From a virus, in UHGV virus genome UHGV-0212524: a stretch of DNA of 64,000 nucleotides, one strand, 5' to 3'. The notes beneath the pieces are model-generated. The model was not told the DNA's origin and searched no databases. It was given only the letters and a program-made list of their open reading frames with translations. This document shows positions 1,334 through 40,960 of this stretch, in pieces (the first letter of the stretch is position 1; the number at the start of each line of letters is the position of its first letter). A program made the position numbers and the translations under genes.

Positions 1334-1377
1334 CCTACCGCCCGATTCTATGGGCGGTAGGTGTTTTATTTTTTTTT
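1334..1377 (+). terminator. rho-independent terminator
   Basis: Inverted repeat cctaccgccc / gggcggtagg followed by a T-run (gtgttttatttttttttg). Confidence 0.75.
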
Positions 1378-1393: not shown

Positions 1394-1957
1394 GTGGCCA
1401 CACCATACGTACCTGATTTGAGTCTGACCTCAGCAGAGCTAGTGGTCGCTTTAATCAATCACGATAATGGGTTACAGCTTACGCTAAACGAAATACGTAT
1501 TAGCGGGACCGTAACAAACTCATCTCCAACAACTTCGCGTCGTAACACCATTACCGAAATCAGTAAAATCAGAAAACCAGATGGTGCGTCTGTTGTGGTT
1601 TATTACGACAGACTCGACGCAGATGAAGTATTAACGTATGAACCCATTCTGATTTCGTTAGACGGTACTGAAGACAACGTTCGTGACATTCTTAGTGTTG
1701 TAAATGAATTCTGCGGAACGAACTTACAACCCGAGGATTTACGTGCTTCAGATATCACTTTAGGTAACGATCCCATTTCCGTTAACGTTGCCGACGATTC
1801 TCCTGCGTGGATGAACGCGTTTATGGTGACGTTGTTTGATACAACCGAACGGGCATTAGCAAACGAAGAAGATGCAATCTTCTGTATTGGTGACAATGCC
1901 GTTCTTACATTCGAGGTTACAGATGGCGACAGCACTGAAGAAGACGAGACTCCATGA
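1394..1957 (+). CDS. hypothetical protein, paralog family A (187 aa)
   Basis: N-terminus PDLSLTS and an internal ...NLQP.DL... segment shared with the 11521..12033 product; weaker similarity to 19498..20346 and 20360..20839. Confidence 0.6.
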   Translation: MATPYVPDLSLTSAELVVALINHDNGLQLTLNEIRISGTVTNSSPTTSRRNTITEISKIRKPDGASVVVYYDRLDADEVLTYEPILISLDGTEDNVRDILSVVNEFCGTNLQPEDLRASDITLGNDPISVNVADDSPAWMNAFMVTLFDTTERALANEEDAIFCIGDNAVLTFEVTDGDSTEEDETP

Positions 1958-2384
1958 GCTCGAAAGCTACGCAGGCACACCGCAGGGCGGGGTACTGCTG
2001 TATAGCAAAGACAATAAAGAATATAAAATTGATGTTGATAAGTTAGCCCCGGTTGCGACAGTCACCACGGTTAACGGTTCGAATAATGCCGCCACGTTGG
2101 ATTTCAATACCAGCACTGACATTATTCTGGTGTTAAACGATCCCACTACTACGGTGACGTTCGCAGCCCTTACTAACGTTGCGGAAAATACCCGTTTCGA
2201 AGTAATGCTAACGTTTAAGCAGGGAACAGGGGCGAATAAAGTAACCTGGCCTGAAAACGTTAAGTGGCCTCACGGTGCAAAACCGGTTTTATCCTACACG
2301 GCAAATGCGGAAGACACTCTGTCGCTTTATACCCTTGACGGGGGTGCCACTTGGAAAGGTTCTCTTCTTGCAGCGGGTTACTAA
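1923..2384 (+). CDS. tail-fibre N-terminal adaptor-like protein (about 153 aa from internal ATG)
   Basis: MATALKKTRLHELESYAGTPQGGVLLYSKDNKEYK parallels the N-terminus of the 1488-aa fibre (MAKAVKKIRLHDLRPYTGDIGEGVLLFSKDEKDYK); the track ORF begins at 1872 but the homology begins at the ATG at 1923. Confidence 0.55.
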   Translation: MATALKKTRLHELESYAGTPQGGVLLYSKDNKEYKIDVDKLAPVATVTTVNGSNNAATLDFNTSTDIILVLNDPTTTVTFAALTNVAENTRFEVMLTFKQGTGANKVTWPENVKWPHGAKPVLSYTANAEDTLSLYTLDGGATWKGSLLAAGY

Positions 2385-5300
2385 ATGAGAAAACATTTTC
2401 AGCGTCACGCGATTAGCTACGCGTTATCGTTAGCTTACGGTCACCAATCCTTCGTTACCCGGAATACGGGAACGACTAACGACGCACATATCGATCATTA
2501 CATTCAAAACGAAGAAGGTGTTCTGTCGAATAACCGTCATTTCATCGCTGATACCATGGCGGAATACCAACCGAACGGTGACGCAACGACCGAGGGTCAG
2601 TCGTTACACATTATCGGTTATTGCCACATGTATATCGCAACAAAAGACGAAAGATGGTTAGATGCTGCGAAACACGCCTGGGATGCGTACAACACGTACT
2701 TCTACGCCGGACAGCCTATTCCGACAACACCCCAGCGTCGGATTTGTAACTGGTTAGTAAACGGGAAAGAACCGGTATTAGCACACTATCCTATTCACCC
2801 TACGGAACCTACCAACGGCGGGTATAAATGTGTTCCTGTAAGGTTTACAAATGGCCAATGTAAGATACCGCACGGTGCACCTTTCTGGGGAGAGTATTTG
2901 GATATCTGTACGTTTGCATATCGTGGCCACCCTGCCTGGGCCGCGATTAACGCAGATGTACAGATTATCAAGGAAGACAAAGAAGGGTCGATTAATTGGG
3001 AAGACGTTTTAACTCACGTTATTACTAATCCTGATAAGCCTTACGAAAGCACAGCTTGGGTCGATTGGCCAACACTGCTAAATAATACTACAGGTTACAC
3101 CCCGCTTTGGGGCGGCTCTGCAACAAAAGCTCCTAAACACGACGTTGACTGGATAATTGCCTGGACGGGTAACAAAATCCAGGATGGTGAAATTATTGAG
3201 ACGGGATTAGCAGACGCTGATAAAGGTACCGTACAGTTAAAAGACACACAGTTAAACGGTGTCTATTTAATTAACTACGCGGTAAAACTTCCTGTCGAAC
3301 ACGGCGGTTACGAATTTAAACGTAATGAGCCGTGGCACAACCGTCCGGTCCACACACCGTTCTTAGGGTCGAAAAACCAATACGGTAACGCCGCTGATGC
3401 TGAACTGTGGTTTATCGACGCCTGTTATTTGCTGTGGCGAATCACAGGTGAAGAGAAATACAAACAAGCATTAGACTGTGCTTTCTACACCGCACATGAG
3501 TACACGTATATTGATGCGACAGATAAATTCTTCCGTCGTTCTACCGCTGCGGATACACCGTTTACTGACGGTATTTCGTACGATTTCGATTACCCAGATA
3601 CCGTAAGTGCCACCTACGGCCGTGATGAGAATGGAGACATTACCATCCACGTGCCTGAAGCGGCGCAGCACTTTATGGAGCAAAAAGCGGTTAGGTTCAG
3701 GATTAACAAAGACTCTAAACTACGTGTCACGTACGGTGGAGTTTGTAAGAATGGCGATCCTGTCTACTGTAAAGTGATGGTGAACATTAACCCTGCGAAA
3801 GCTGATACCGAGGAGGTAAACTGGTACGGTTTAACCTTACCTCGGTCTACGGTAAATACCGTTAAACAGTACGATGTTGACTTAGGCCAACTTTCCCGTA
3901 TTACCACCCCAGAAGGGGGAGACTACCTGATAGCTGAAGCCCGTGCGTGTTCGGACTACGGTGGTTGTACGTGGGAAGAACGTTTTGAGGATAGCATTTA
4001 CGATGGTCGCGCGGGTACCGTGGTAGAAGCGGAATTTCCTGATGACAGTGCCGGGTTTATTATCGGGTTTTGGTTAACCGCTGAAGAGAAGGTAAAACCC
4101 GTTTCTATTGTTTACCGTGCAGACGCAGATTTTAACTTGCGTTTAGTCGACAGTGATAACTGGCTTTGGTGGTGGATGTTACCCAACACAAACAACGAAT
4201 GGCGTCAGGTAACGTTGAATCCGGATGAAGCCACACTTTCCGGTTATCAGCCAGACCACACAGACGCTGACCCTAAACCTTCAGCACCGAATTTCGATAA
4301 GGTGGATCAGGTCACGATTCTTCCTGACTCCACAGTTGACCATGCACACTTTGCTTACTATTGTGTTAACGATGTCCCACCGGTCTTTAATAAAGACGAT
4401 GGTTATATTTTAACCTTCCGTATTGCCTTACGCGGTGGTGCAGAGTTTGATGCAAAGGTGGGTGATTGTACGATTGTAGATTACCGATTGGATTCGTTAG
4501 CGTACTGTCCGGGTACGATACCGTTCACGAACAGCTACTTAGAAGGTTCAGAACAGTTAGGTGCTTGGCACGGGATGCCTTATCCAGGTTATCAGTATCC
4601 GTTTATGTACAGTATCCACAAAGACGACCGGTATAAGTTGTGGTTAGATAACCAGATTCAATTCCTGCACGATTCGCAGTTGGCTTACCAACAGCAAATT
4701 GGGGAATTAGGACCTGGTTGCGCAGCTTATATCTGGAACCGTTGGGACAACTACAGCTACGGAGAAGCGGATACCTGGACGACGTTCCATTGGGGTGATG
4801 ACCATCCTTGGGCAGGGTATCAGCCTCGCGCGTTTCATGCTGCGTGTCGGTGTTGGTACGAACTGAAACTGCGAGGTAAAGACGTTCCCGAGGCGTTAAC
4901 AACCTATATTGACAACTGGGTGAATTGGCTAGGTGGGTTTGTGGATCGGTTTAACGGCCACACTCCTAACGAGTTCCCTACAGCACCGGATAAAGCTGTT
5001 TGGGTGGAAAACGACTTCACCGCACATATGTGTGGGTTGTGGTTAGCAGGGTGTTGCTGGGCATTACTCGCCGGTGCAACGAATCCGAACTACGAAAAAG
5101 TGGTTAATGCGGCAATTAAGGAGTTAGGTGAAGGGTTTACGATTACCTCAATTCCGAATAAGCCGATTAATGGAGCGTGGTCTCCAGCCGCTCGAGAGTC
5201 TTCTGATAACGGAATGGCTTATGGGTTCTACACTGGAGAAGTGCTACGTGCGTTAGGTCTCTACGTTACTTATAAAACCTACGGACCCAACGCTAATATT

Positions 5301-5390
5301 TATCGTGACTTAGCGATTACTGACCACAGTCAAGCGGTCTTAGACGTTACGTTAACGATAGAAGATGTTCCATTAAAACCGGAGCAATAA
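2385..5390 (+). CDS. large virion protein, putative tail spike or receptor-binding protein (1001 aa)
   Basis: 1001-aa ORF directly after, and in frame with, the adaptor-like gene; Trp/Tyr-rich; no catalytic motif recognised. Confidence 0.5.
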   Translation: MRKHFQRHAISYALSLAYGHQSFVTRNTGTTNDAHIDHYIQNEEGVLSNNRHFIADTMAEYQPNGDATTEGQSLHIIGYCHMYIATKDERWLDAAKHAWDAYNTYFYAGQPIPTTPQRRICNWLVNGKEPVLAHYPIHPTEPTNGGYKCVPVRFTNGQCKIPHGAPFWGEYLDICTFAYRGHPAWAAINADVQIIKEDKEGSINWEDVLTHVITNPDKPYESTAWVDWPTLLNNTTGYTPLWGGSATKAPKHDVDWIIAWTGNKIQDGEIIETGLADADKGTVQLKDTQLNGVYLINYAVKLPVEHGGYEFKRNEPWHNRPVHTPFLGSKNQYGNAADAELWFIDACYLLWRITGEEKYKQALDCAFYTAHEYTYIDATDKFFRRSTAADTPFTDGISYDFDYPDTVSATYGRDENGDITIHVPEAAQHFMEQKAVRFRINKDSKLRVTYGGVCKNGDPVYCKVMVNINPAKADTEEVNWYGLTLPRSTVNTVKQYDVDLGQLSRITTPEGGDYLIAEARACSDYGGCTWEERFEDSIYDGRAGTVVEAEFPDDSAGFIIGFWLTAEEKVKPVSIVYRADADFNLRLVDSDNWLWWWMLPNTNNEWRQVTLNPDEATLSGYQPDHTDADPKPSAPNFDKVDQVTILPDSTVDHAHFAYYCVNDVPPVFNKDDGYILTFRIALRGGAEFDAKVGDCTIVDYRLDSLAYCPGTIPFTNSYLEGSEQLGAWHGMPYPGYQYPFMYSIHKDDRYKLWLDNQIQFLHDSQLAYQQQIGELGPGCAAYIWNRWDNYSYGEADTWTTFHWGDDHPWAGYQPRAFHAACRCWYELKLRGKDVPEALTTYIDNWVNWLGGFVDRFNGHTPNEFPTAPDKAVWVENDFTAHMCGLWLAGCCWALLAGATNPNYEKVVNAAIKELGEGFTITSIPNKPINGAWSPAARESSDNGMAYGFYTGEVLRALGLYVTYKTYGPNANIYRDLAITDHSQAVLDVTLTIEDVPLKPEQ

Positions 5391-5411
5391 TAACCCGCTT
5401 ATAAAAATGTT

Positions 5412-5445
5412 GGGGGAGGTGCTTTACCTCCCCCAGATCTTTTAG
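5412..5445 (+). terminator. putative terminator hairpin
   Basis: gggggaggt / acctccccc inverted repeat then a short T-tract. Confidence 0.4.
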
Positions 5446-5468: not shown

Positions 5469-8400
5469 ATGGCTAAAGCGGTAAAGAAAATTCGTTTACA
5501 CGATTTACGTCCATACACCGGGGATATAGGTGAAGGTGTTTTACTTTTTTCCAAGGATGAGAAAGATTATAAGTTACCTGTCCGTGAGATCGTTGCAGAT
5601 ATTGACACCGTACGTAATGCGGTGTCTGATGCACAAACAGCAGCAACACAATCACAAGAAGCTGCAACTCAGGCTACACAAGCAAAGAATTTAGCAGAAA
5701 CAGCAAAACAACAAACTGACACCGTTGCGGCTACAGTTGCTCAACAAGCGCAAACTGTAACCGAAAAAGCAACTGAAGTCGGTACAAAACACACTGAAGT
5801 GTTAGCCGCGAAAACGGCGGTAGATACCCAGGTTGTGTCCGTTAATGAGAAAGCGCAAGCGGTAGCGGCAAGCGAGGCCAACGTCACACAAGCGGTGACT
5901 ACCGTTACGAAGAAAGCAGAAACTGTTGCCACACAAGCCGGTCAAGTCGAACAGTCGCTTACGGCAGTTAACGAAGCTGTCGCGTCGGTAGAGTCGTCAA
6001 AAGCCGCTGTAGAAGCTACAGCAACGCAAGTTACCACAGACAAAGAAACCGCAGAGAATGCGGCAACGCGTTCTGAGGCAGCGGCTAAGCGTGCAGAAGA
6101 AATCGCTGCAAAAGGTAACGTTGATGCAACAACGACCAGTAAAGGTATCGTTAGACTTAATAATACCTTAAGCAGTGACTCTGTTACTGAAGCGGCTACG
6201 CCGTCAACGGTTAAGCAGTTAAATGAAGATTTGCAGTTAAAAGCAAACCGTCACAACCCAACTTTTACCGGTGTGGTAAAAGCACCAACACCTGCTTCGG
6301 ATTCTAACGACACGAGCGTCTCAACGACCGCATGGGTACGGCAAGCGATTGCTGAATTAGTGGACTCTTCACCCGAGACGTTAGATACGTTATCAGAAAT
6401 TGCAGCTGCGTTAGGAAACGATCCTAACTTTGCGACAACGATGACGAACCAACTCGCGGGTAAACAGCCGTTAAGTCCGTTACTGACAGCGATTGCCGCA
6501 GTCACCACCGCTGCAAACAAACTCCCTTACTTTACCGGTAGTAATCAGGTAGGGTTAGCGGATTTCACCTCGACTGCGCGTGATTTGTTAGCGAAAGGGT
6601 CGACGGCAGATATCATTAACTTCCTGGGTTTGAAAACCACTGTTGATAAAGCTGCGGGTGCTATGCAACGCAGTTCTAACGGTGCCGATATTCCAGATAA
6701 AGTCACCTTCGCGAAGAACATCGGGTTGTCAGCAGAGACGTATTTGAAGTTTAATGGGGAAATGGCAGTAGATGCGGATATCAACACCTTCGGCCCAGTC
6801 GAAGCGTTTATGGGTGTCTGGTCTAAAGCCACGTCTACGAATGCAACAATTGCAAAGAACTTCCCGGAAGACGATGCAGTTGGTTACTTAGAGGTATTCA
6901 AAGCAGGTAACTACAGCGGAAGCCAACGTTTTACCATACGTAACGGTAACGTCTATACTCGTCGTTTAACAGGAACCTGGAACGGTACTAACGGCCCTTG
7001 GTCGCCCTGGAGAATGACAACTACCGCGAACCGTCCGCTCTCCACCACTATTGACCTTAACACTTTAGGTGGTGTTGAACACATGGGTCAGTGGCGTAAC
7101 TCCAGTTCTTCTCTTGCGACGTTCGATCGTCATTATCCCGAAGAAGGTGGTAATGCTCAAGGTGTATTAGAAGTAATGGAAGGTGGTCTCTACGGACGTA
7201 TGCAACGTTACACCACTCGTCGTGGTACGATGTATGTCCGTGGGTTGACTGCGACTTGGGATGCGTCTAATCCACAGTGGGAAGATTGGATTCAAGTTGG
7301 GTATCAGGTAGACGGTGCCTACTATAAGGGTAGCTTTAATGACTTAACTAAACCTGGTCGTTTTAGTGTTACCGGTGAGGCTACTGACGGTCCGTTAACA
7401 GACTCTGCTGGCGCAACCTTGTTAGGTGTTTGCGAAGTTACCTTACGCTTAGACGGTTCAGGCGTTGAACAAAATTATACCACATACGGTACAGGCGCAA
7501 CTACGAAAGGTCGCAAGTTCCAACGAATTCGTACAGGAAACGCCTGGAGCGAATGGCGAGAGATTTTCACATCCTATTCACTCCCGTTGGCTTTAGGGAT
7601 CGGTGGGGTTGCTGCCAAGGTCGATCCGTTAGACTGGCAAACCTTCGATTTCGTTCCTGGCCAGATGATAAGTACACCGTTGAATACCATGAAAAACATT
7701 CCTGCGGGAATGGATTGGGGTGTTATTGACGGTAACTTGGTCAGTATTCTCGTAGGGGCGTCAGAGGACACCGGTACTGGTCGGAGTATGTTGGTCTGGC
7801 GCGGTACAGTGTCTACTGCTAACTATCGCTTCTTTGCAGTACGTATCGCTGGCGAGAAGGGTAGCCGTACGATTACGCCACGACAGATGCCTGTGTTGAA
7901 CGCAGCCCACACTTGGGCAGAGAAACAGACCTTTGCAAAAGGGTTAGCAGGTGAGTTAACCGGCAATGCTTCAACCGCCACTAAGCTCCAGACTGCGCGT
8001 AGAATTGGCGGGGTCGCTTTCGACGGCAGCGGCGACGTTAACCTCCCAGGTGTTAACCAACAAGGTAATCAAAACACCACAGGTAACGCCGCGACAGCCA
8101 CTAAACTTCAAACCGCCAGAAATATTAACGGTGTGAAATTCGATGGCTCTGGAGACATCAATATCAACACCTTGGTAGGTCGTGGACGGGTTACCGCTCT
8201 GACCGGGTCGAACAAGGGTACACCTGGTATCCAGATGTACGAAGTTTACAATAACGGTTATCCAACCGCCTATGGTAACTTGCTGCACTTAGGTGGTGCT
8301 AATGCGCTAGGCGAAGGTGAGTTGTTAATTGGTTGGTCGGGCACGAGTGGTGCACACGCACCCGTTTATATTCGTAGTCGACGCGATACGGCTGATGCGC

Positions 8401-9935
8401 CGTGGTCAGATTGGGCACAAGTTTATACTGCCCGTGACAGTATTCCTGGTGTAAATACCACCGGTAATCAGGATACTACTGGCAATGCCGCTACCGCGAC
8501 GAAACTGAAAACCGCTCGCAGAATCGGCGGCGTTACCTTTGACGGTACTGGGGATATCAATTTACCGGGGGTTAACCAGCAAGGCAACCAGAATACGACA
8601 GGTAATGCAGCGACCGCTACTAAGTTACAAACAGCACGTAAGATCGGCGGTGTTAACTTTGACGGTTCGCAAGACATTAGTCTGCCCGGTGTAAACCAGA
8701 CGGGTAATCAGTCGACTACCGGAAACGCAGCCACGGCAACAAAGTTGCAGACAGCGCGTACCATTAACGGTATCGCATTTGACGGTACTAGAAATATATC
8801 GTTAGGGCCTGCCGATATAGGTTGTCCGGCTTCGCCCACTGGTTGGTTGGAGACTGGTAAAGACGGCGGCGCAATAACTACAGCACAGCTAGTGACGTTA
8901 TTGCAAAATAACGGCGCGTTTACCACAAAATCATGGGTTGCTCGCTGTGCATGGGCTTATGCTGCTAGTGCGTCCATACCGAACAGCGAGACGGGTTGTG
9001 GTGTTATTCCGTTAGCTGGGGCTGTTATAGAAGTGATTAGTAACAGCGCAAACAACTACACGATCCGTATAACGACCCCCACAACGACGAGCGTCGGCGG
9101 CGCACTCACTAATGCGGAGTTTATCTACGTAAATAACGGTGATGCTTACTCACCAGGTTGGCGTCGCGCTTACAATACGAAAAACAAGCCAACTGCTGCG
9201 GATGTTGGGGCGTTGCCATTATCTGGCGGTCAATTGAATGGTGTGCTGACGCTGCAAAATGTGAGTCAGCCTCTCAAGACGCCGGGTGGCGGCATTCTGG
9301 CAAATGATGGAAATTTATACATCAATAAGTCAGGATTTGCAGGCTGGATTGATGCGCTGTTTTTGAAGAACAGCGGCGGTACTGTCACTGGCGATTTAAC
9401 GGTTAACGGTAAACTGGTTACGAAGTATGCTGATTTCCGAATCGCTTACGGTAGCTGCGGTTTCATTTTACGTAATGATGGTGCCAATACCTATTTCTTA
9501 GTAACCGACTCCGGACAAGCCGCAACGGGTTCCTGGAACGGACTACGTCCGTTGTATTTTAATAACTCTAACGGTCAAGTAACCTTTGGTCATAACATTT
9601 CTAGCAACGGTAACGGTTCGTTTAACGACGTACAGATTCGTTCTGACCGTCGCAACAAACGTAATCTGGTGAAGCTGGATAAGGCTTTGGATCGGTTAGA
9701 AGCGCTTACCGGCTATCTGTACGAGGTTCAACATCCAGACGACGGTTGGAACACTTCGGTAGGTCTAATTGCTCAAGACGCATTAGAAGCGTTACCTGAA
9801 CTTGTGTCTGAGGATGATGATGCCATTTCAGGCGAAAAACGTTTACGTCTAAACTACAATGGCGTTATTGCGCTGTTAGTAGAGGGTATGAAAGCGTTGC
9901 GTCAAGAGGTTAACGAAATTAAAGGAAGATCCTAA
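5469..9935 (+). CDS. long tail fibre protein with tandem fibre repeats and C-terminal intramolecular chaperone domain (1488 aa)
   Basis: Ala/Thr/Gln-rich region; about six repeats of GNAATATKLQTAR.IGGV.FDGSGD.NLPGVNQQGNQNTT; near the C-terminus SDRRNKRNLVKLD matches the Ser-Asp-x-Arg-x-Lys autocleavage signature of endosialidase-type (peptidase S74) chaperone domains. Confidence 0.85.
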   Translation: MAKAVKKIRLHDLRPYTGDIGEGVLLFSKDEKDYKLPVREIVADIDTVRNAVSDAQTAATQSQEAATQATQAKNLAETAKQQTDTVAATVAQQAQTVTEKATEVGTKHTEVLAAKTAVDTQVVSVNEKAQAVAASEANVTQAVTTVTKKAETVATQAGQVEQSLTAVNEAVASVESSKAAVEATATQVTTDKETAENAATRSEAAAKRAEEIAAKGNVDATTTSKGIVRLNNTLSSDSVTEAATPSTVKQLNEDLQLKANRHNPTFTGVVKAPTPASDSNDTSVSTTAWVRQAIAELVDSSPETLDTLSEIAAALGNDPNFATTMTNQLAGKQPLSPLLTAIAAVTTAANKLPYFTGSNQVGLADFTSTARDLLAKGSTADIINFLGLKTTVDKAAGAMQRSSNGADIPDKVTFAKNIGLSAETYLKFNGEMAVDADINTFGPVEAFMGVWSKATSTNATIAKNFPEDDAVGYLEVFKAGNYSGSQRFTIRNGNVYTRRLTGTWNGTNGPWSPWRMTTTANRPLSTTIDLNTLGGVEHMGQWRNSSSSLATFDRHYPEEGGNAQGVLEVMEGGLYGRMQRYTTRRGTMYVRGLTATWDASNPQWEDWIQVGYQVDGAYYKGSFNDLTKPGRFSVTGEATDGPLTDSAGATLLGVCEVTLRLDGSGVEQNYTTYGTGATTKGRKFQRIRTGNAWSEWREIFTSYSLPLALGIGGVAAKVDPLDWQTFDFVPGQMISTPLNTMKNIPAGMDWGVIDGNLVSILVGASEDTGTGRSMLVWRGTVSTANYRFFAVRIAGEKGSRTITPRQMPVLNAAHTWAEKQTFAKGLAGELTGNASTATKLQTARRIGGVAFDGSGDVNLPGVNQQGNQNTTGNAATATKLQTARNINGVKFDGSGDININTLVGRGRVTALTGSNKGTPGIQMYEVYNNGYPTAYGNLLHLGGANALGEGELLIGWSGTSGAHAPVYIRSRRDTADAPWSDWAQVYTARDSIPGVNTTGNQDTTGNAATATKLKTARRIGGVTFDGTGDINLPGVNQQGNQNTTGNAATATKLQTARKIGGVNFDGSQDISLPGVNQTGNQSTTGNAATATKLQTARTINGIAFDGTRNISLGPADIGCPASPTGWLETGKDGGAITTAQLVTLLQNNGAFTTKSWVARCAWAYAASASIPNSETGCGVIPLAGAVIEVISNSANNYTIRITTPTTTSVGGALTNAEFIYVNNGDAYSPGWRRAYNTKNKPTAADVGALPLSGGQLNGVLTLQNVSQPLKTPGGGILANDGNLYINKSGFAGWIDALFLKNSGGTVTGDLTVNGKLVTKYADFRIAYGSCGFILRNDGANTYFLVTDSGQAATGSWNGLRPLYFNNSNGQVTFGHNISSNGNGSFNDVQIRSDRRNKRNLVKLDKALDRLEALTGYLYEVQHPDDGWNTSVGLIAQDALEALPELVSEDDDAISGEKRLRLNYNGVIALLVEGMKALRQEVNEIKGRS
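7951..8820 (+). repeat. tandem in-frame tail-fibre repeats (about 40 codons each, two blocks)
   Basis: Repeated nucleotide and protein units inside the fibre gene; the same repeats generate look-alike antisense ORFs. Confidence 0.8.
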
Positions 9936-10717
9936 TGGCAGTTGTCGGCGTAGGTGGTTGGATTGGTTCTTCAGCAAAAGCTGAAACTGGTAACGATTGG
10001 ATGTCTGGCGCGATGCGCACACTTGGTGTGCCGGTTCCAGGCTGGATGTCGCAATTGGCGGGAAAATCAAAAGAGGTTCAGTATTCGATCGGGGCTAATC
10101 ACAATTACAATAAAGATACGCTTATTAACTATTTACGTTCTATAGGCTCTAATGCTGTCGTTGTGACCATTACAGGGGATTTAGTGTCTTATAGTAGCGG
10201 GGTTCCTTGTTTAGAATTCCCTAGCAATCTTCCAAATTCGTATATTACACTCATCATCAATCCTGGGGTTACAGTATACGGCAGAGGAGGCAACGGCGGT
10301 TCTAACTCACCAGGCGGTGCAGGTGGAACCGCAATACAGAACGGAATAGGAAACAGACTGCGTATAACCAACCGTGGCGCTATTGCCGGAGGCGGTGGCG
10401 GCGGTGGCGGCGGTAACAGGGGTAGACTAATATTTGGTGGTGGCGGTGGTCGCCCATTCGGTGCTGGTGGGTCTTCCTCACATATGAGTTCCGGTGCAGC
10501 TGCTGGTACTATTTCCGCTCCTGGTAGAGGATCTGTTGGTGAGGGGTCTCTTAGTGCATATACAGGCGGTTCGGGTGGTAATGTCGGTGCTGCTGGAGGA
10601 AGATGTAATACTCATGGTAACGGTACAGAATATAACGGCGGAGCCGCTGGTGCAGCCGTTAGAGGTAATGCGCCAAGATGGGACGCAGTAGGTGCAATAT
10701 ATGGTTCACGTGTTTAA
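9935..10717 (+). CDS. glycine-rich protein, possibly fibre-associated (260 aa)
   Basis: TAATG stop/start overlap with the fibre gene; poly-Gly tracts (GGGGGGGGGNRG); N-terminus paralogous to the next gene. Confidence 0.55.
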   Translation: MAVVGVGGWIGSSAKAETGNDWMSGAMRTLGVPVPGWMSQLAGKSKEVQYSIGANHNYNKDTLINYLRSIGSNAVVVTITGDLVSYSSGVPCLEFPSNLPNSYITLIINPGVTVYGRGGNGGSNSPGGAGGTAIQNGIGNRLRITNRGAIAGGGGGGGGGNRGRLIFGGGGGRPFGAGGSSSHMSSGAAAGTISAPGRGSVGEGSLSAYTGGSGGNVGAAGGRCNTHGNGTEYNGGAAGAAVRGNAPRWDAVGAIYGSRV

Positions 10718-31484: not shown

Positions 31485-34400
31485 TTAAGATGTAAACATA
31501 AGATTGAACTGGAGTTTGTCGATATCGCGAGTTTCCGCCGGATTCACGGCATCGTACGCGGTCGCTACGTAAACGGTTAGCGTACCGTTAGCGTAAGACG
31601 ATTTCACCGGTGGGTTAGTTCCGGTCTGACCATCTCGGACAATGAGCGTAGGTTCACTCGGGAGATTGTCAAACTGACCCTTGACCGCTTTATACACCAA
31701 ACCAGATTGCGCAGCCAGTTCAGTGTCCGTAAAGACAAAGAACGGTGTGTCGATATCAGCCTGCTTGACGATGGTGTTCGATTCAACGTCAATCAACTGT
31801 ACCGCCCCAAACTTCGTACGATAACTTTCATACTCGTTCTTCGGAATAACGAACGTGACATGAACACGAACCTCCTCGGCAGGTTTAAACCCACTGTGCT
31901 CTTTTTCCAGGTACTGGTTGGCGGTTAACGTTACCGTTTGTTCAGTCATCGTACCACCGGCCTGGTTTAATGCATACCGAGCTTCAACAATACCGGTTGG
32001 TGCAGCAAGTCGTAGTTTCAGAGCACGATTCGCCGTTCCTGGATTACCTGGCACCTGAACACGCAAACTCAATGCTAAGTAAGCATTCGTTCCGGTAGTC
32101 GGTTTCGTATACGCACCAATCCATTTCATGTTCGCAGACGCTGCCTGCATGTTCTCAGAAGCAGTGGCTGTCGCAATGTTAGCAGCTACCGCTTTCTGCC
32201 AGAATTGGTCAGCGCAGTTCTCATACGCTACCCTGGCCACGCTCTTATAACCCGAATACGTTTCCTGAATTGGTAACTTAGGACGCGTCGTAATGCCGGA
32301 CAGTGAACCCCATTTCTGACCGTCAACATACCCTTCACCTTTCGACGCAGACGCCGTAGGTGCTTTAACGGGCTTGTTAACCAGTGTTAATAGAGGACCC
32401 GTCTTTCTGTCAAACGCTGCTGCTACATCGTGTTGGTCGATAATTGCTGCGTGGTCTTCCAGTTCTTTCACACGACCCAAACGTTTTACTTTGTCGATAC
32501 TGATACCAGTAATACGGCTGGAATCGGTGGTTACTGTCCCAACGAACAGTCTTGTTGAGGTATCGGCTAACTGCTCCAAACCGATGCGGTATTGCGCGGT
32601 AGAACCCGACACCTCAGCGTGCACGTAGAACGTCTGGTTAGCGTGATTGGATGGGAACTCACTGCTTAAATCCACAGACCACGTTGGGAGTGTGTAACTG
32701 CTGCTACCGAAATCTAATTTGACTTCTTCTGTCAAATACAGAATCCAACCTTCCGCTGTTTCCACACCGGCAATAATAACCGCCTGACCTCCGGTTGAGA
32801 ACGTCGTGTCGTTAACGAACTCTGCGGCTGTATACGCGTTACCTGAACAGAAAACACGGTCAGCTTTAGAGTAAATCAACGCCATCTTGTCCCAATCACC
32901 GGCACCCATATAGCACCCAGATTCTGGTCTATGTTCAGGGGCCATCTGCCGTAACTGTGATTTACCTGCAACGCGTGTCCAACCTGAACCAGGGTCGAAG
33001 GTATATTTAGCAGCGTAGCCCAGGGCGTTTAAGTCCCCGATATTTCGGGTAGTTAACGTATAAGGTAACCAGATACCGAAGTTAGTTCCATCCGCAGATG
33101 CAAAAATAGGCTGCCCCACGCGCCTCGTTTTACCTCCCGCTCCCCCATTTAGTGACTGATAACTTAAACCATAATCGAGGTCTAAGAACCAGTCCACCAA
33201 CTTAAAGGTGGCTGAGTTGAAACGTAAGTAGCCGTTCTCTTTAGATGGGCTCACCATGAAGTAATAGATGTCAAGAATTCGACGTCCGTTACTTGAGGTT
33301 TTCATGCACGAAACTTGCAACAAGTCAAATTCGCACACGGTGTTGATACCCAACATCCAAAGAGCAAACAATGCATTACCGGTTTGATGTGCAGCACTAA
33401 TACGTTCGTTCGCGTAACCATTTGCTTGACCAGATGGCGCACCGTCAACGATCATCCGAATCATTTTCTGCCGATCGGCTTCTTCTAGCGTTAAGCGTTC
33501 GGAAGACAATGCGAAGTTACCGTAGATGTTACGATACGGGAACGTTTCTGCTTTGGTCAAATACCAGCCGTTCAACTGTCCATGACGCTCCTCAGGGATC
33601 ATGCACGCAGCCATACAGCTAAGCTGCTCGTAAAGCGTTGGATCGACTTCACGACGGTTGTTGTTCGGACCGTACCCACTATACCCAGAAACATCGTAAG
33701 GTTTGTTCGGATCAACTTCCACTTCGATCGTGTAACGGTTACGAGGGTTCGATAACCAGACCTTATTCGAACCACCAATCCCTACTGGATAAGACAAACC
33801 GATGGTGTAAATGGAGCCACGGCCTTTATCCCAGGTAAACGTTCCTTCGCCCGAGGTGTTGTTTGGGTTATCGTAACGCAGATAATCGAAAAGCTCTCTG
33901 CCTTGTGTACTCTTAATAGAAACATTAGGCATTTGGTCCGCATCGGCAATTTGCCAACAGGAAAGCATCATTCCTGTACCGTTGGGTTTAGCATACGTCG
34001 CGAAACAACGGTTGTTTGCCTGGCCACCACCCCACTTACGATTGGTTCCTACAGTTGAACCATCTGCGAACGAGAGTGTAGTAGTAGCATCAGCCTTGAT
34101 GGGGAAGCGTTCGCGGCCTTCTAACGTAACCTTGCCCGTCAACGTATCGATTGTAAAACTTGTTGCCCATTGAAGGAAATTAATCGTCGTACCGTCGGCC
34201 GCTGCAAACCACACGGTAGGCATATGGTTCACACGAATCACGCTATCGCGCACAGCACACGCGTGGTTACATTCTGGACCGTGAACAAAGTTACGCCCGA
34301 TCGTCCATTTAGCACGACCCTCCGGTGTGAGATATGTAAAGAATTGACCCGTTTGCGACTCTTCGGTTTTCTGACCAATACGCAAGCAGAGGTTATCTCC

Positions 34401-36671
34401 GAATTGTCCCATCTCGCCGGTTAGAGTTACACGTTCAAATTCTAACGTAGTGTTAGTAGACAAATCGGCCTTACGTAGACGCCAAGCTGCTACGGCGTAA
34501 GCGGAGTTATTTACCGTTGAACGGAGAAGATAAACGTAGTCCTCAACCAACACGACATCGTCAGCTTCCGGCCACGGGTTCCAGGTTTGTTCCACAGTAC
34601 CACTGGGGTTGCCGTTACGGTACACGGGCATCGTAACGCGACATACCACCGTGTGCTTAGTGTGGTCCATCGAGCCATTAAACAGCACCAAATAACGGTT
34701 ATTGTCAGAACCCAGGCAAATAATCGCTTCCTGGCCACCGATCAATATCGCTATTAGGGTCACCCCAGGATATTTACTCATCCCGGCAGGGTGATATTTC
34801 ACTGAGGTCTGCTGCGGATTTACAAACGCGTTTGACGTGTCAATGTCAGCATAGCCGTAATAAATAGCTTCCGTACCCGGCACGCCGTTAGAACCGTTAC
34901 GGAGCGAATAAACCTTACCCTGCTGATACCCAACAACCCCTTTCTGGTAGGACTGGTTTTTGGTATAGCCTGCGTAGTTACCTAACGCTGGGATAGGTAA
35001 GAAGTTCTTGTTACCGAATTTCGCTCCACCTACCGTCCACGCCGGTAAGATGGTATTCAGTTTATCAGAGACCTTCTTAATCTCTTTTGCGAACAACCAG
35101 CCTTGACGCGACGTGACAGCTTTATCGTTAGTGGTGTCAATTGCATCCCAGAGCTGTAAGATACCGTCAACCGTTGCACTACCAATCGGGACGTTATCCA
35201 AGTCAGCAGTGGTGTGGGTGTGCGTTTTCAAACTCTTGTTTTTCAACACGTTCGTTAACGCTTTTGTCACAGGCTTATCACTCGGTATGGTGTTATCCAT
35301 CTTATCGATACCGAAATCGGTTTTCGTTAAGGTTAACACCATATTGTCGCCTGTTTTAACAAACCCTTTACCGTTAACGGTATAGTCATCGTCAACGTAC
35401 AAGTCCAAGCGGTCTTTTAATTCTGTTACAGCTTTCTGGGAGATAGCAGTACCTAACGCCGCAGACGTAGAGATATTCGTAATCGAGAACAACCCATAAA
35501 CTGATTCGGACGCCGTGGGAATATTCGCGTTTAACGTAACCGGGTTAGTCTGTTTTGCGGTACCGTACGGTTTTACAGTGTCTGACGCTTTGAAATACGC
35601 GTTTGCTTCAAGCAACGTTACTGACGTCAGATACATGTTCACCATTTCTGGTGTAACCAGGTACACGGAGTTATAAACTGGCGCTAATACGTCCTGTTCC
35701 GACCCCGAGTGAACCCAAAGCGTATTCAGACCCGCACTGAATTCAACCGCTAAACCCGATTCGTTGTTGTCCTGGTCTGCTTTAATCACCAACGGTTGTG
35801 GCGAGGTAATTAACCACTTATCACCACGAATACTGATGATGTGGCCACCTGACGTTTTAAACGTTAATTCATTACCGTTCGTGGTACCCCATCGACCGTA
35901 AACGGTGCCGAGGGCTTCACCCATTAACTGGTCAACGTCCGATTGCTCAATACCCGCTGAACCCATCAGCGTAGCCAACTCGTCAATCGTCAACCCAAAC
36001 GCTTTTGTAGCGTCAACAGCACGACCTAATACCGGGAGAGCAGCAATGTCATCAGTGGTATAATGATGCGCGTTAGGGTTACGGTGATGCTGGTATAACT
36101 CTTCGTCGAAAACCTTTTTACCGTTCTCGTAAATCAAGTTAGTGACTTCACTGAACGCAGCATCTAATTCCGTAGAACGTTTGATGATTTTCTTGCGAAT
36201 GTCTTCTAACGCCTTAACAACCTCATCCCTCAGAATCGCTTCTTCTAAGTTAGCAGGCGGGTCGATAGGCTGAATAACCGGCGCATACGCCATTAGTTCA
36301 GACCAGTCCACGTTACGTGGGTCTTTCAGGTCAGTACGAACTAAGAACTTCCCGATTTCAGATTGCGGTACACGGTATTGACGTGCTACCCCTAAAATCT
36401 CATATTCGATTTCTGTTGCAGTAAGCAACATAAACCCGCCGTAAATCTGATCTTGTTCAGCTTCTGCGAGTTCTTTAAAGTAATAGCCTAAATAGTAGTC
36501 CAACCCCTCAATCAGAGTACGACGTCCGTTAGGCGCGGTATCGTCGGCTACTGTGAGTTTTAATCCGATACGATAAAAAGGTCCTTCAGGCGGAATGACC
36601 ACGTTAAATCGGTTAGGGTACGTCGCTGTGCTTAGCGTACCGTTAAACTGCGCCGCGTCTTCTCTCGGCAT
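31485..36671 (-). CDS. large tail fibre or tail spike protein (1728 aa)
   Basis: N-terminal anchor motif PPEGPFYRIGLKLTV...GLDYYLGY shared with neighbouring fibres; size and position in the structural block. Confidence 0.7.
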   Translation of the reverse strand: MPREDAAQFNGTLSTATYPNRFNVVIPPEGPFYRIGLKLTVADDTAPNGRRTLIEGLDYYLGYYFKELAEAEQDQIYGGFMLLTATEIEYEILGVARQYRVPQSEIGKFLVRTDLKDPRNVDWSELMAYAPVIQPIDPPANLEEAILRDEVVKALEDIRKKIIKRSTELDAAFSEVTNLIYENGKKVFDEELYQHHRNPNAHHYTTDDIAALPVLGRAVDATKAFGLTIDELATLMGSAGIEQSDVDQLMGEALGTVYGRWGTTNGNELTFKTSGGHIISIRGDKWLITSPQPLVIKADQDNNESGLAVEFSAGLNTLWVHSGSEQDVLAPVYNSVYLVTPEMVNMYLTSVTLLEANAYFKASDTVKPYGTAKQTNPVTLNANIPTASESVYGLFSITNISTSAALGTAISQKAVTELKDRLDLYVDDDYTVNGKGFVKTGDNMVLTLTKTDFGIDKMDNTIPSDKPVTKALTNVLKNKSLKTHTHTTADLDNVPIGSATVDGILQLWDAIDTTNDKAVTSRQGWLFAKEIKKVSDKLNTILPAWTVGGAKFGNKNFLPIPALGNYAGYTKNQSYQKGVVGYQQGKVYSLRNGSNGVPGTEAIYYGYADIDTSNAFVNPQQTSVKYHPAGMSKYPGVTLIAILIGGQEAIICLGSDNNRYLVLFNGSMDHTKHTVVCRVTMPVYRNGNPSGTVEQTWNPWPEADDVVLVEDYVYLLRSTVNNSAYAVAAWRLRKADLSTNTTLEFERVTLTGEMGQFGDNLCLRIGQKTEESQTGQFFTYLTPEGRAKWTIGRNFVHGPECNHACAVRDSVIRVNHMPTVWFAAADGTTINFLQWATSFTIDTLTGKVTLEGRERFPIKADATTTLSFADGSTVGTNRKWGGGQANNRCFATYAKPNGTGMMLSCWQIADADQMPNVSIKSTQGRELFDYLRYDNPNNTSGEGTFTWDKGRGSIYTIGLSYPVGIGGSNKVWLSNPRNRYTIEVEVDPNKPYDVSGYSGYGPNNNRREVDPTLYEQLSCMAACMIPEERHGQLNGWYLTKAETFPYRNIYGNFALSSERLTLEEADRQKMIRMIVDGAPSGQANGYANERISAAHQTGNALFALWMLGINTVCEFDLLQVSCMKTSSNGRRILDIYYFMVSPSKENGYLRFNSATFKLVDWFLDLDYGLSYQSLNGGAGGKTRRVGQPIFASADGTNFGIWLPYTLTTRNIGDLNALGYAAKYTFDPGSGWTRVAGKSQLRQMAPEHRPESGCYMGAGDWDKMALIYSKADRVFCSGNAYTAAEFVNDTTFSTGGQAVIIAGVETAEGWILYLTEEVKLDFGSSSYTLPTWSVDLSSEFPSNHANQTFYVHAEVSGSTAQYRIGLEQLADTSTRLFVGTVTTDSSRITGISIDKVKRLGRVKELEDHAAIIDQHDVAAAFDRKTGPLLTLVNKPVKAPTASASKGEGYVDGQKWGSLSGITTRPKLPIQETYSGYKSVARVAYENCADQFWQKAVAANIATATASENMQAASANMKWIGAYTKPTTGTNAYLALSLRVQVPGNPGTANRALKLRLAAPTGIVEARYALNQAGGTMTEQTVTLTANQYLEKEHSGFKPAEEVRVHVTFVIPKNEYESYRTKFGAVQLIDVESNTIVKQADIDTPFFVFTDTELAAQSGLVYKAVKGQFDNLPSEPTLIVRDGQTGTNPPVKSSYANGTLTVYVATAYDAVNPAETRDIDKLQFNLMFTS

Positions 36672-36765
36672 CGTAAAGACTCCTACTTTTAAATAAAATG
36701 GATACCCCTCCCCATTACAGGGAGGGGTTACCTACGGACACACAACTGCCCGCAGGCAGCCTGTC

Positions 36766-39700
36766 CTAAGTACGATCCCCTAACTGCTTCCCGTTAAGTT
36801 CACGTTTCAGTACAGAAAGTATCCATTTCCACGCTTTACTCGTGATATGGTACGGATTGCGTTTCTCCATTAAGAACTGCTTTTCACCGCTACGCAGTTC
36901 GAAGCTCTGCGCATTAAGCTGATCCTGACGAGTGCTTTGCTCATCAGTCACGTCTAACGAACAGGTAAAGTTAAGCTCGTAACCTTCGGGATTATCACCC
37001 GGCGGGTCTAAGACAATATAGATGTCCTGACCTACACGTAAGTCGGTGGCCGTGATACTAATCGCTTTACCTACGTCAGCACTGGTTGACAGAGCAAACT
37101 CTGCGCTATCAGTAGACGCTAAGAATGGGTCTTTCCCTGCGTCGCCGATAATCACCTTACCTGGCCAGTTACTTTTTATCGTTCCTGACACTTTTGCAAT
37201 TCGGTACTGTTGTTTATCGGCACCTTGTGCAAAACGGAGAATGAGTTTGTGACGATAACGACTTGCAGCAGCCTTAGTCGTACTCCACTCGTTGTTCCAG
37301 GAAGTATGCAGTTCGTTTTTCTTCGCCATCAGCGCACCGCGAGACAGCTTACGATCAAAGAACTGCGCAGGTAACTGCCCATCGTGAGAAACCGCAACGT
37401 TTCCCTGACCAGTTGGCAAGGCAATGCTCTCCGTGGCACGGTATTTTTGACTAATCTCATAAGTCGCAGGGTCAATCACAGACTGACTATAATCAGCGTC
37501 TTTGTTATCAGCCAAATACCCAACGGATGAATCCAAATACGACTCAAACAACGAACGTAAGTAATGATACTTATCAATGTCGATGTTGTTCGTAACCGGA
37601 TCAATCAGTGCGTGGCTAATTGTTACTCGGCATTTCGCGCTCAGTTCTTTAAACGACAACCCTATTCCGTCACCGGTGAAATAATCCACCAAGTCAAACG
37701 GGAATTGAATCTCCAATTGACGTTGTTTAACTGTCGTCGTCCCAAACTGCGAGAACGACAACGCTAAACGTAACACACGCGTACTTACGTTATAACGGTA
37801 ACGAATCATCCCACGAGGTGCATGGTTTGCAGAGATTTTATCTCGGGTGGCACCCCAGCCAATCAAATCGAGAATCGCGGGGTTGGTTTCTTCACCGTTG
37901 AACAACACGTCCTTAAACGTTGCATTCACCGCTGTTTCCCCAGACTCTTCCATTACCAACGGAATGTCAGTAACGTCTGAAACTGAACGGGAACCAATCC
38001 CCAACTTACACGCTTTGTCCGTCAGGTCAATACGTACATAACGACGTTTAACACTCGCCCCTTGCGTTGACGTACATAGCACCAAATCTGGTGCGGCAGT
38101 AAGTGCTTGTGTTCCACCGACGTCGTCAACATCGAATGCAAACGAACCTTCGAACGTCGGTGCGTTGTTTTCTTTCGGGTTAAACGGTGTAAACCAGCAA
38201 TACGGTGTAGCACCTTCAGGCATCACAACGTACTGAAGACTGGACTTCACGTTTTGGTTGTGTGCGTAAGTATAAAGACCGCGACTGACAAGATGGAAAA
38301 CATCACCTGTTCCGGCTGTTAACGCTTTCCTAAAGATACACGCTCTTGGTTCGGCAATAGCACGGTTTAATAACGGCAAACGTGGGTTATCCGTTAACGC
38401 CCAGTCCACAGAACTGAGTCCGTGTGCTTTACGCGTGTCGATGTGTTCACTAACCTCGGCACTTTTCCCGAAATCAAACGTGGTTTCGAACCCTACCGTT
38501 TTATTCGCGTAATTCTCACCAGCAACAATATCAACGTAACCGATATAACCACGTTCAGGATCAACTGCGATGCTCTGAATCGGTTCAGCACGCGAATACA
38601 GAGAGCCTGTGAGCATGTTAACGTACAGATAGTGACGAATCCCTACGTGCGTGGTAACAAACTCCTGGAGAAGCTCTACGCGCGTTTCAGGGCCACTGAA
38701 GTAAACAGGGTAATCCCCATCGTAAACTTCAAACTGTACCGCTGCGGACTTAGCCGTGTCACTACATTCAGCTTTAACCGCAATCGTGTAGTTTTCAACG
38801 TCTGCTGACGTTTCATACACTGCAACGAGTGGAGATTCGCCTGAAGCTGCTAGGTTACCGTTGATATAAACGGTTACCGGTCCGCCCCCTGCGGCATAAA
38901 CCCAGAGCTTCGATTGGTACGCCCTTACACGCGTTTTTGCCAGAACCGTAACGACTGACTGGTCACCCATCTGTGTAGCAGTTTTACCTACCGGGACAGA
39001 CTGGAACCCCATCAACGGCGGTTCTTCAATACCCGTCCAGTTGATTCCCGTACCGTTACTCACCTTACCCGTAGGCCAGGTCAGTTCAAGCTGGTTATTC
39101 GGTGAGAACCAGTTAAACATCGGGGTGGTTTGCAGGTCAATCGCACCAGTAACGGTGCTGTCGCCTTTCGTCCCGTCCAGCAAATAGAAATATTTCAAAT
39201 CCTGAACGGAGATTGACGTACCCTGGCTATTAAAGCGCCAGTCTGCACCTTTCACAGCAGCAAAATCAGTTACCGTGCCTTCTTTCGCGTTTGCAATTGC
39301 AGCAGCCACCACATCTAAACGGGCTGAAAGCTCTTTTAAGATGTTCGGTACCACCGCACGGTTTTCAACTAAGCCGTTCTGGTTAGTTGCGTAACGACCG
39401 ATGCCGTAAATCGACTGCGAGGCTTTATAAATGCCTAACTCTGACCAGTCGTGATGGTGTCCGACGTCTGCTAAACCACTAACCGAAGCATTCAGTGCGG
39501 TTGACAACGGTTTGTCGAGGTCTGCGGTGTTATCCGCTTGCCCTAATCCCAGGTCAGCTTTTGTGATTGTCCTGGAACCGTCGTTCATCGGTTTACCGTT
39601 AATCATGGTCGTTTTAGTCACGTACCCTGATAAGTCGGTTGAATACGGCGTTAATGACGCAGGGGTTGCAGCAACCCCAACCGTTTCTGTGCCTTTACCG

Positions 39701-40950: not shown

Positions 40951-40960
40951 AAAATTCTCC

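Follow-up and report, generated by a model that had tools for sequence, protein, structure and literature searches.

In SP6/K1-5-like podoviruses, tailspikes are mounted in an adaptor-plus-tailspike arrangement built on a gp37-type adaptor with a T7 gp17-like N-domain, and Klebsiella phages of the KP32 type carry anchor-branch receptor-binding proteins. Also among the closest known systems are the N-terminal XD domains of CBA120 TSP4 and TSP2, T4 gp10-like docking domains of branched tailspike complexes. In the jumbo phage SPN3US, gp123 (16.5 kDa) and gp124 (113.7 kDa) were both detected in wild-type virions, and both were lost or ~20-fold depleted in tailless particles, with a tail assignment for each (PMC10052503 Table S2). 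A 2026 cryo-EM study of phage phi92 left gp140, the phi92 orthologue of gp123, unplaced in the map and called its function uncharacterised.

Here, we analyse a gene pair of the gp123/gp124 type in a 64-kb stretch of phage DNA (64,000 nucleotides, hereafter the window), which the original prediction had described as a fibre-like gene split by a single in-frame TAA. We regard it as very likely that the pair instead consists of two separately translated genes, forming an old and horizontally mobile tail cassette in which the small protein would tether a predicted enzyme encoded directly downstream.

Layout of the locus and its junction

The locus comprises the following features, given by window position:

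1334..1361, + strand: terminator-like GC-rich hairpin with a T-run (11-pair stem, 8 GC pairs), called by consensus match only
1394..1957, + strand: DUF7941 gene, 187 aa, orthologue of SPN3US gp122
1923..2384, + strand: gene for a small tail protein, 153 aa, a proposed adaptor; orthologue of SPN3US gp123 and phi92 gp140
1923..2054, + strand: anchor motif of ~44 aa (MATALKKTRLHELESYAGTPQGGVLLYSKDNKEYKIDV...), common to the 1488-aa fibre and specific to SPN3US-like phages
2055..2381, + strand: C-terminal beta-sandwich of ~100 aa, with the motif QGTGANKVTWP..KWP..P.LSY...W.G...GY taken from alignments
2382..2387, + strand: junction TAAATG, where the small-gene stop codon abuts the large-gene start codon
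2385..5390, + strand: gene for a predicted glycoside-hydrolase-like, tail-associated protein, 1001 aa; orthologue of SPN3US gp124 and of the phi92 gp141 type
5410..5436, + strand: terminator-like hairpin (12-pair stem, 7 GC pairs) between the enzyme and fibre genes
5469..9935, + strand: 1488-aa fibre gene, with a long fibre shaft fused directly to the anchor motif at 5469..5600

The first hairpin stands upstream of a three-gene unit that the second hairpin closes. The leading gene of this unit is identified as a DUF7941 gene by Pfam (E = 7.6e-20) and its product is 45% identical to SPN3US gp122; 35 nt of this gene overlap the small gene, and every Seoulvirus-like relative has it at the corresponding place. 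Equating it with the baseplate gene that precedes gp140 in phi92 was considered and rejected, as the two have no similarity. The small gene starts at ATG 1923 (MATALKK...), where all homologues begin and upstream of which lies a GAGGT Shine-Dalgarno-like sequence; the in-frame ATG at 1872 was ruled out as a start.

At the other end of the small gene, TAA at 2382-2384 is followed immediately by ATG at 2385-2387, in the frame of the ORF that starts at 1923, and on these coordinates and this frame the original prediction was accurate. Because 21 of the 61 same-strand neighbouring ORF pairs in the 64-kb window share a frame, the common frame of 1923..2384 and 2385..5390 is a coincidence; besides this junction, six closely spaced pairs in the window share one. 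The TAA is the normal terminator of the small gene, and the abutting ATG suits a compact junction of the type associated with translational coupling. As a recoding candidate, the junction is ordinary.

Modules of the small protein and the predicted enzyme

The small protein matches phrog_9017, annotated as 'tail fiber protein' (E = 4.7e-39), and aligns with SPN3US gp123 over residues 1-153 at 47% identity, with the length of 153 aa kept in its close relatives. Its AF2 model has a mean pLDDT of 87, with values of ~90-96 over the beta-sandwich. Neither Pfam nor NCBIfam has a model for the small protein or for the beta-sandwich, and the best hit of a PDB-chain sequence search with the small protein, RagA at E = 0.03, was dismissed as noise.

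The homology between the N-termini of the small ORF and the 1488-aa fibre, on which the original prediction drew, is borne out (26 of 50 residues identical, E = 9e-12), and so is the direct fusion of this motif to the distal part of the neighbouring fibre. Exactly two copies of the motif occur in the window, at 1923 and 5469. The fibre additionally carries Pfam Gp34_trimer and Peptidase_S74, and the motif is nearly invariant among the fibres of relatives L011-L019. A tblastn search with the motif returned gp123 orthologues only, one per genome, in 24 SPN3US-like phage records. Judging from these 44 residues held in common with a fibre, the motif would be the attachment module of the small protein.

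The conserved C-terminal beta-sandwich matches 3213 representative clusters, and in 143 of 159 representatives no more than 20 aa separate the end of its last copy from the C-terminus. Carrier N-termini vary by lineage (153-157, 173-175, 207-269, 307 and ~560 aa). The carrier of Vibrio phage G1 (Autographiviridae) begins with the T7 gp17 tail-attachment domain, Pfam Phage_T7_tail (31.5 bits, with the cutoff at 25.2), and within the region examined of this podophage only the carrier has it. Some long proteins hold two to five copies of the beta-sandwich; P0012 is a protein with five. We tentatively propose that the beta-sandwich could be a portable docking module, a swap of the short anchor then sufficing to mount the same large (alpha/alpha)6 glycosidase on unlike tails, among them those of jumbo phages, phi92/rV5-like, FelixO1-like and Rosemountvirus myoviruses, T7-like podoviruses and HK97-capsid phages. 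If the domain is indeed a docking module, the multi-copy proteins would be multi-socket scaffolds.

The original prediction treated the distal part as fibre-like, but the 1001-aa protein models confidently as glycoside-hydrolase-like, with a predicted (alpha/alpha)6 barrel bearing beta-rich insertions, the barrel being that of GH8, GH76, GH88, GH105 and GH48-like folds. Identity to the structural matches is only 8-14%, the Pfam GH76 match is sub-threshold (18 bits against a cutoff of 25.9), and searches of NCBIfam and of PDB-chain sequences with this protein returned no match. Its invariant Asp/Glu residues include D66, E70, D338, E340, D377 and D380. The protein is 71% identical to SPN3US gp124 over ~1000 aa, and its N-terminus is conserved across lineages from about residue 7, with no lineage-specific anchor; in ~108 of the best 120 homologues, the start falls within 20 aa of one common N-terminal position. 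Since the enzyme is conserved across unlike phages, its target may be a conserved envelope glycan as opposed to the variable O-antigen or capsule.

The gene pair across phages and its explanations

We read the junctions of the window, nine close relatives, seven Seoulvirus/Erskinevirus phages and 78 IMG/VR loci, together with those of Justusliebigvirus, Vequintavirus, Asteriusvirus 121Q, Rosemountvirus, Kolesnikvirus M7 and a Vibrio Autographiviridae phage. The small and large genes are separate ORFs in all ~100 homologous loci, which span at least nine phage lineages. The junction stop is TAA, TAG or TGA, and the gap between the genes is -20, -19, -8, -4, -1, 0, +1, +2, +3, +11 or +13 nt. In close relatives at 69-70% identity, a 2-nt gap places the two genes in different frames, and relatives at 82% identity have TAG in place of TAA. 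Frames differ in L017-L019, Asesino, JN03/EC001 and the non-Seoulvirus lineages, most lineages beyond the nearest sister clades having the genes out of frame or overlapping. The original prediction had proposed comparing homologues for fused and split forms, and had named separate genes in different frames among related phages as the outcome that speaks against its split gene. This is what the comparison returned, as relatives consistently have two genes, mostly in other frames, and of the alternatives raised there it is that of two separate proteins, an adaptor and a distal partner, that agrees with the ~100 related loci.

The order of the pair is as constant as its separation. The ORF directly downstream of the small gene is an enzyme homologue in 76 of the 78 IMG/VR loci, full-length where the contig allows, and the enzyme homologues in this position measure 930-1020 aa. 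Under automatic start-picking, loci L021 and L068 of the IMG/VR set have odd downstream ORFs, probably reflecting frameshifts or assembly breaks. By tblastn, 521 phage records have the small protein and 528 the enzyme, and the counts for individual genera are almost the same for both. In a mirror-tree comparison, the divergence of the domain tracked that of the enzyme (r = 0.97, Mantel p ~0.001), with 42 of the 72 loci falling in one clade. We set this correlation aside as evidence of interaction because linked genes co-diverge anyway and a few clades dominate the sample.

Fusion of the two proteins was sought from both sides. Among the matches listed for the domain (the best 150 of 3213 clusters), none of the 159 domain-bearing representatives is homologous to the enzyme, and among the best 120 of 315 enzyme homologues none contains the beta-sandwich. 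With no protein found that joins the small domain to the enzyme, the description of the locus as a split gene does not hold. The original prediction had also considered a nonsense mutation or a sequencing error in a fused ancestor. It is extremely improbable that the TAA arose recently by such a mutation in a once-fused gene, or through an error of sequencing or assembly. Nothing but the shared reading frame favours this explanation, whereas TAAATG is identical in independent assemblies from at least four different samples, a stop is present at that position across the ~100 loci, and the downstream gene has a conserved ATG and N-terminus of its own. A further suggestion was read-through of the TAA, and we consider it very unlikely that programmed or leaky read-through yields a minor ~130 kDa fusion in the window phage and its closest relatives. 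Only the geometry is suggestive, the gap being 0 nt and in frame in the window, L011-L016 and L020, and 3 nt and in frame in SPN3US-type phages; however, this arrangement is not conserved, and the nearest sister clades (L017-L019) are out of frame. In nearly all homologues, moreover, the small protein terminates at one conserved GY position, no stimulatory RNA structure was found at the junction (fold z = +0.92), and there is no tRNA gene within the 64-kb window. TAA is also the least leaky bacterial stop, read by both release factors, which again counts against read-through.

A different explanation accepts the separate genes and disputes the tether: the small protein could be an independent short fibre, a glycan-binding tip or an assembly factor, with the enzyme attached to the baseplate in some other way and the tight synteny due to functional cooperation alone. 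The two to five domain copies in long proteins fit a carbohydrate-binding or structural role as well as they fit docking, but on balance we find this explanation unlikely. The SPN3US orthologue of the enzyme is a tail component although the enzyme has no lineage-specific N-terminal anchor, and in the region examined of the T7-like phage the domain carrier alone has a tail-attachment domain. Across unrelated virion types, the two genes occur together and in the same order almost without exception, and where the enzyme is itself fused to a baseplate domain no separate beta-sandwich gene lies upstream.

We thus return to two genes whose small product probably tethers the enzyme to the baseplate. 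The predicted enzyme lacks an attachment module, and in ~100 loci its gene lies next to that of the carrier. In the mechanism that we envisage, the anchor would insert the small protein into the baseplate periphery and the beta-sandwich would hold the enzyme non-covalently; the enzyme would therefore ride on the virion, where it could cleave a surface glycan during adsorption. Overall, this would amount to an anchor-and-branch receptor-binding arrangement. No published data on an interaction between the small protein and the enzyme were found in the literature searched.

These results remove a false lead, in that recoding site, pseudogene and assembly error are all dismissed as readings of the junction, and for annotation two genes should be called, at 1923..2384 and 2385..5390. 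They also define a very widespread and strictly syntenic pair, in which the gene for a large glycosidase-like tail protein comes after that for a small carrier with a conserved but un-modelled C-terminal domain. The boundary between anchor and domain is a possible swap point for engineered receptor-binding modules.

Comparison with known systems

The closest counterparts are SPN3US and the other Seoulvirus/Erskinevirus jumbo phages, which have the same order of DUF7941 gene, small gene and large gene, likewise as separate ORFs. The SPN3US pair is also in frame, with TAA, GCC and ATG in succession, in comparison with a spacer of 0 nt in the window phage. The window phage has in addition, directly downstream of the pair, the 1488-aa fibre and a gp38-type adhesin, reusing the gp123-type anchor motif, whereas SPN3US and Asesino are without this fibre and adhesin at that position.

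Phages of the phi92 type, represented by Justusliebigvirus (Bas62_0024/0025) and Vequintavirus (Bas54_0025/0026), have the beta-sandwich at the C-terminus of a 157-222-aa protein, with a full-length enzyme homologue (27-41% identity) encoded directly downstream of it. This small protein and that of the window have unrelated N-terminal parts, and its gene is out of frame with the next, with either a TAATG overlap or a 1-nt gap. The large protein is annotated there as a 'lateral tail fiber protein with glycosidase domains'.

A different solution is found in the P2-like proteins P0242/P0249 (1097 aa), in which the enzyme, 48% identical in an alignment that begins at residue 10 of the window protein, is fused to a Tail_P2_I domain within a baseplate gene cluster. 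On the P2-like contig, no separate beta-sandwich gene lies between the baseplate genes and this fusion. The gpI-type anchor fusion shows that the enzyme can be fused to an anchor, but without the gp123-type domain.

With the SP6/K1-5 and KP32 systems, finally, the pair would share its logic, that of a short attachment carrier and a separately encoded enzyme without an attachment domain. The enzymes themselves differ: that of the window is predicted to be an (alpha/alpha)6 barrel, whereas those of the SP6/K1-5 and KP32 types are trimeric beta-helix tailspikes.

Gene structure around the junction

The window is part of the genome of a jumbo phage, a relative of Salmonella phage SPN3US (Seoulvirus). 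The features that frame the junction are:

1334-1361: terminator-like hairpin, bracketing a three-gene unit on one side
1394..1957: DUF7941 gene, orthologue of SPN3US gp122
1923..2384 (+): small gene, 153 aa
2385..5390 (+): large gene, 1001 aa, a glycoside-hydrolase-like enzyme
5410-5436: terminator-like hairpin, bracketing the unit on the other side

As originally described, a TAA at 2382-2384 closes one ORF in frame 0 and an ATG at 2385 begins the 1001-aa ORF in the same frame, with a spacer of 0. The start codon of the small gene is ATG 1923 (MATALKK...), downstream of a GAGGT Shine-Dalgarno-like sequence, and the gene overlaps the DUF7941 gene by 35 nt. Every homologue uses the equivalent start; an in-frame ATG at 1872 was rejected as the start. 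A greedy ORF map of the window has 61 same-strand neighbour pairs, of which 21 share a frame, and so do six other closely spaced ORF pairs; the shared frame of the small and large genes is not remarkable.

The predicted homology between the small protein and the neighbouring 1488-aa fibre was confirmed at their N-termini (52% identity over residues 1-50, E = 9e-12), and the anchor motif occurs exactly twice in the 64 kb. In an AF2 model (mean pLDDT 87) the N-terminus is poorly ordered, residues 24-37 form a beta-hairpin and residues 47-150 a beta-sandwich; the conserved motif is QGTGANKVTWP..KWP..P.LSY...W.G...GY. Neither Pfam nor NCBIfam holds a model for this C-terminal domain of ~100 aa (window 2055..2381).

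The fibre region (5469..10717) encodes the 1488-aa fibre, with a Gp34_trimer domain and a C-terminal self-cleaving Peptidase_S74 chaperone; a stop/start overlap at 9935 leads into the gene of a gp38-type adhesin (Pfam GP38, E = 3e-69). Such a combination of S74 chaperone and gp38 tip adhesin looks unusual; all close relatives carry the whole module, which SPN3US and Asesino lack at this site. Elsewhere, 31485..45283 (-) has three consecutive very large ORFs (1728, 1394 and 1440 aa), which may match paralog family C of SPN3US (gp168-170, candidates for baseplate and fibre proteins).

Conservation of the stop across relatives

The sole megablast match was Proteus phage 7 (71% identity across the large gene). 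SPN3US carries the orthologues gp122 (DUF7941), gp123 (156 aa) and gp124 (1005 aa), annotated as separate genes. Metagenomes and a single Enterobacter assembly supply all the closer relatives, with small proteins 97%, 82%, 70% and 69% identical to that of the window, all of 153 aa.

Junction of the small and large genes (percentages are small-protein identities)
Window and 97% relatives: TAA directly followed by ATG, same frame
82% relatives: TAG directly followed by ATG, same frame
69-70% relatives: TAA + 2 nt + ATG, different frame
SPN3US, Proteus phage 7, SPAsTU, pEa_SNUABM_29: TAA + 3 nt + ATG, same frame
Asesino: TGA + 1 nt, different frame
JN03, EC001: small gene 7 codons longer, 19-nt overlap with the large gene, different frame
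Beyond this family the pair recurs in many lineages:
Justusliebigvirus (phi92-like phages): same gene pair, TAATG overlap
Vequintavirus: same gene pair, 1-nt gap
Asteriusvirus 121Q: same gene pair, 1-nt gap
Rosemountvirus and Kolesnikvirus M7: same gene pair, TAATG overlap
Vibrio Autographiviridae phage: same gene pair, TAATG overlap

A pattern scan of IMG/VR yielded 79 loci, and in 78 the domain-bearing ORF was readable through its stop. This ORF stops 0-13 residues past the domain in all 78, and in 76 the ORF that follows encodes a homologue of the 1001-aa protein (39-98% identity, full-length where the contig permits), across gaps of -20, -8, -4, -1, 0, +3, +11 and +13 nt. The stop is thus kept as a stop across relatives, while its identity, spacing and frame relation vary.

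Several loci have peculiarities of their own. In JN03 and EC001 (L006 and L007, 5001..5486) the small gene no longer stops after the conserved GY, and the first residues of the enzyme differ too. On two IMG/VR contigs, L021 and L068, the enzyme ORF breaks off or is disrupted just past the junction, probably through a frameshift or assembly error of those contigs. In Erwinia phage M7 (L101, 646..6373) the enzyme homologue measures 1157 aa, and some of the similarity to the window enzyme's N-terminus falls in a separate upstream "tail fiber" gene, gp040, which suggests that an N-terminal segment was rearranged or duplicated.

Two proteins, read-through or mutation

The original prediction had left open two separate proteins, a nonsense mutation or sequencing error in a fused gene, or stop-codon read-through. 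Read-through would account for the shared frame, but it is rejected because the stop is conserved as a stop while its identity, spacing and frame relation are not; separate genes in differing frames among related phages were the very outcome named in advance as counting against it. We also found no recoding signal in the RNA at or past the stop (no stable structure, z = +0.92), in tRNA genes (none in the window) or in the identity of the stop, TAA, and as a recoding candidate the junction is ordinary. The same pattern of conservation excludes a recent nonsense mutation or a sequencing error, and TAAATG is identical in independent assemblies of several samples.

Two truly separate proteins, an adaptor and a distal part, is the reading that holds, and comparing homologues for fused and split forms gave the split form. 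Searched exhaustively with HMMER, 1.84 billion representative proteins gave 3213 clusters with the small protein's C-terminal domain. Among 159 domain-bearing proteins inspected from these matches, the last domain copy ends within 20 residues of the C-terminus in 143, and none shows similarity to the 1001-aa protein. Conversely, about 108 of the best 120 large-protein homologues share an N-terminal start position to within 20 residues, and the beta-sandwich is absent from all 120 (HMM E-values >0.6). The domain also occurs in as many as five spaced copies within proteins of 1400-2000 aa (P0012, P0014, P0016).

The single kind of fusion found joins the enzyme to a Tail_P2_I domain, without the beta-sandwich, in a P2-like baseplate cluster (P0242). 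This protein lies at 5001..8294 of contig L099, in a cluster containing gpV, gpW and gpJ, and the contig has no separate beta-sandwich gene between the baseplate genes and the fusion. In sequenced phages the co-occurrence of the two genes is almost perfect, with 521 records for the small protein, 528 for the enzyme and nearly equal counts per genus.

Virion placement and a model for the cassette

Across lineages the beta-sandwich and the enzyme travel together, and the variable part is the small carrier's N-terminal portion. SPN3US-like phages have ~44 aa there and phi92-like phages another short segment; a Vibrio podophage has a T7 gp17 tail-attachment domain (Pfam Phage_T7_tail, above the gathering threshold), and one group of HK97-capsid phages has ~460 aa. 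No lineage-specific N-terminus was seen on the enzyme among the homologues compared. The 44-aa anchor also sits directly on the T4-like long fibre in the window's phage lineage; in SPN3US-like genomes the motif has a single copy, that on gp123.

In SPN3US, gp123 and gp124 are present in wild-type virions, absent or ~20-fold depleted in tailless particles, and both assigned to the tail by the authors (PMC10052503 Table S2). The same table labels gp122 "Non-virion", with spectral counts of 7-8 for wild-type virions against 0 for tailless particles. This pattern matches that of gp123, and gp122, whose window orthologue is the DUF7941 gene, may be a low-copy tail protein of the same module.

To the established gene structure, synteny, folds and SPN3US virion location, the simplest model would add that the anchor plugs into the baseplate, that the beta-sandwich grips the enzyme non-covalently, and that the partners are translationally coupled through their adjoining stop and start codons, a docking contact and a coupling that we infer. 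The main rival to the docking step would make the small protein a glycan-binding tip or structural module in its own right, a role that the occurrence of the domain in multiple copies, with a maximum of five in a 2036-aa protein, would also fit.

With the junction explained by two adjoining genes, the remaining interest lies in a very widespread cassette whose domain is un-modelled. The window's gene pair belongs to a known, annotated type, that of SPN3US gp123/gp124 and phi92 gp140/gp141.
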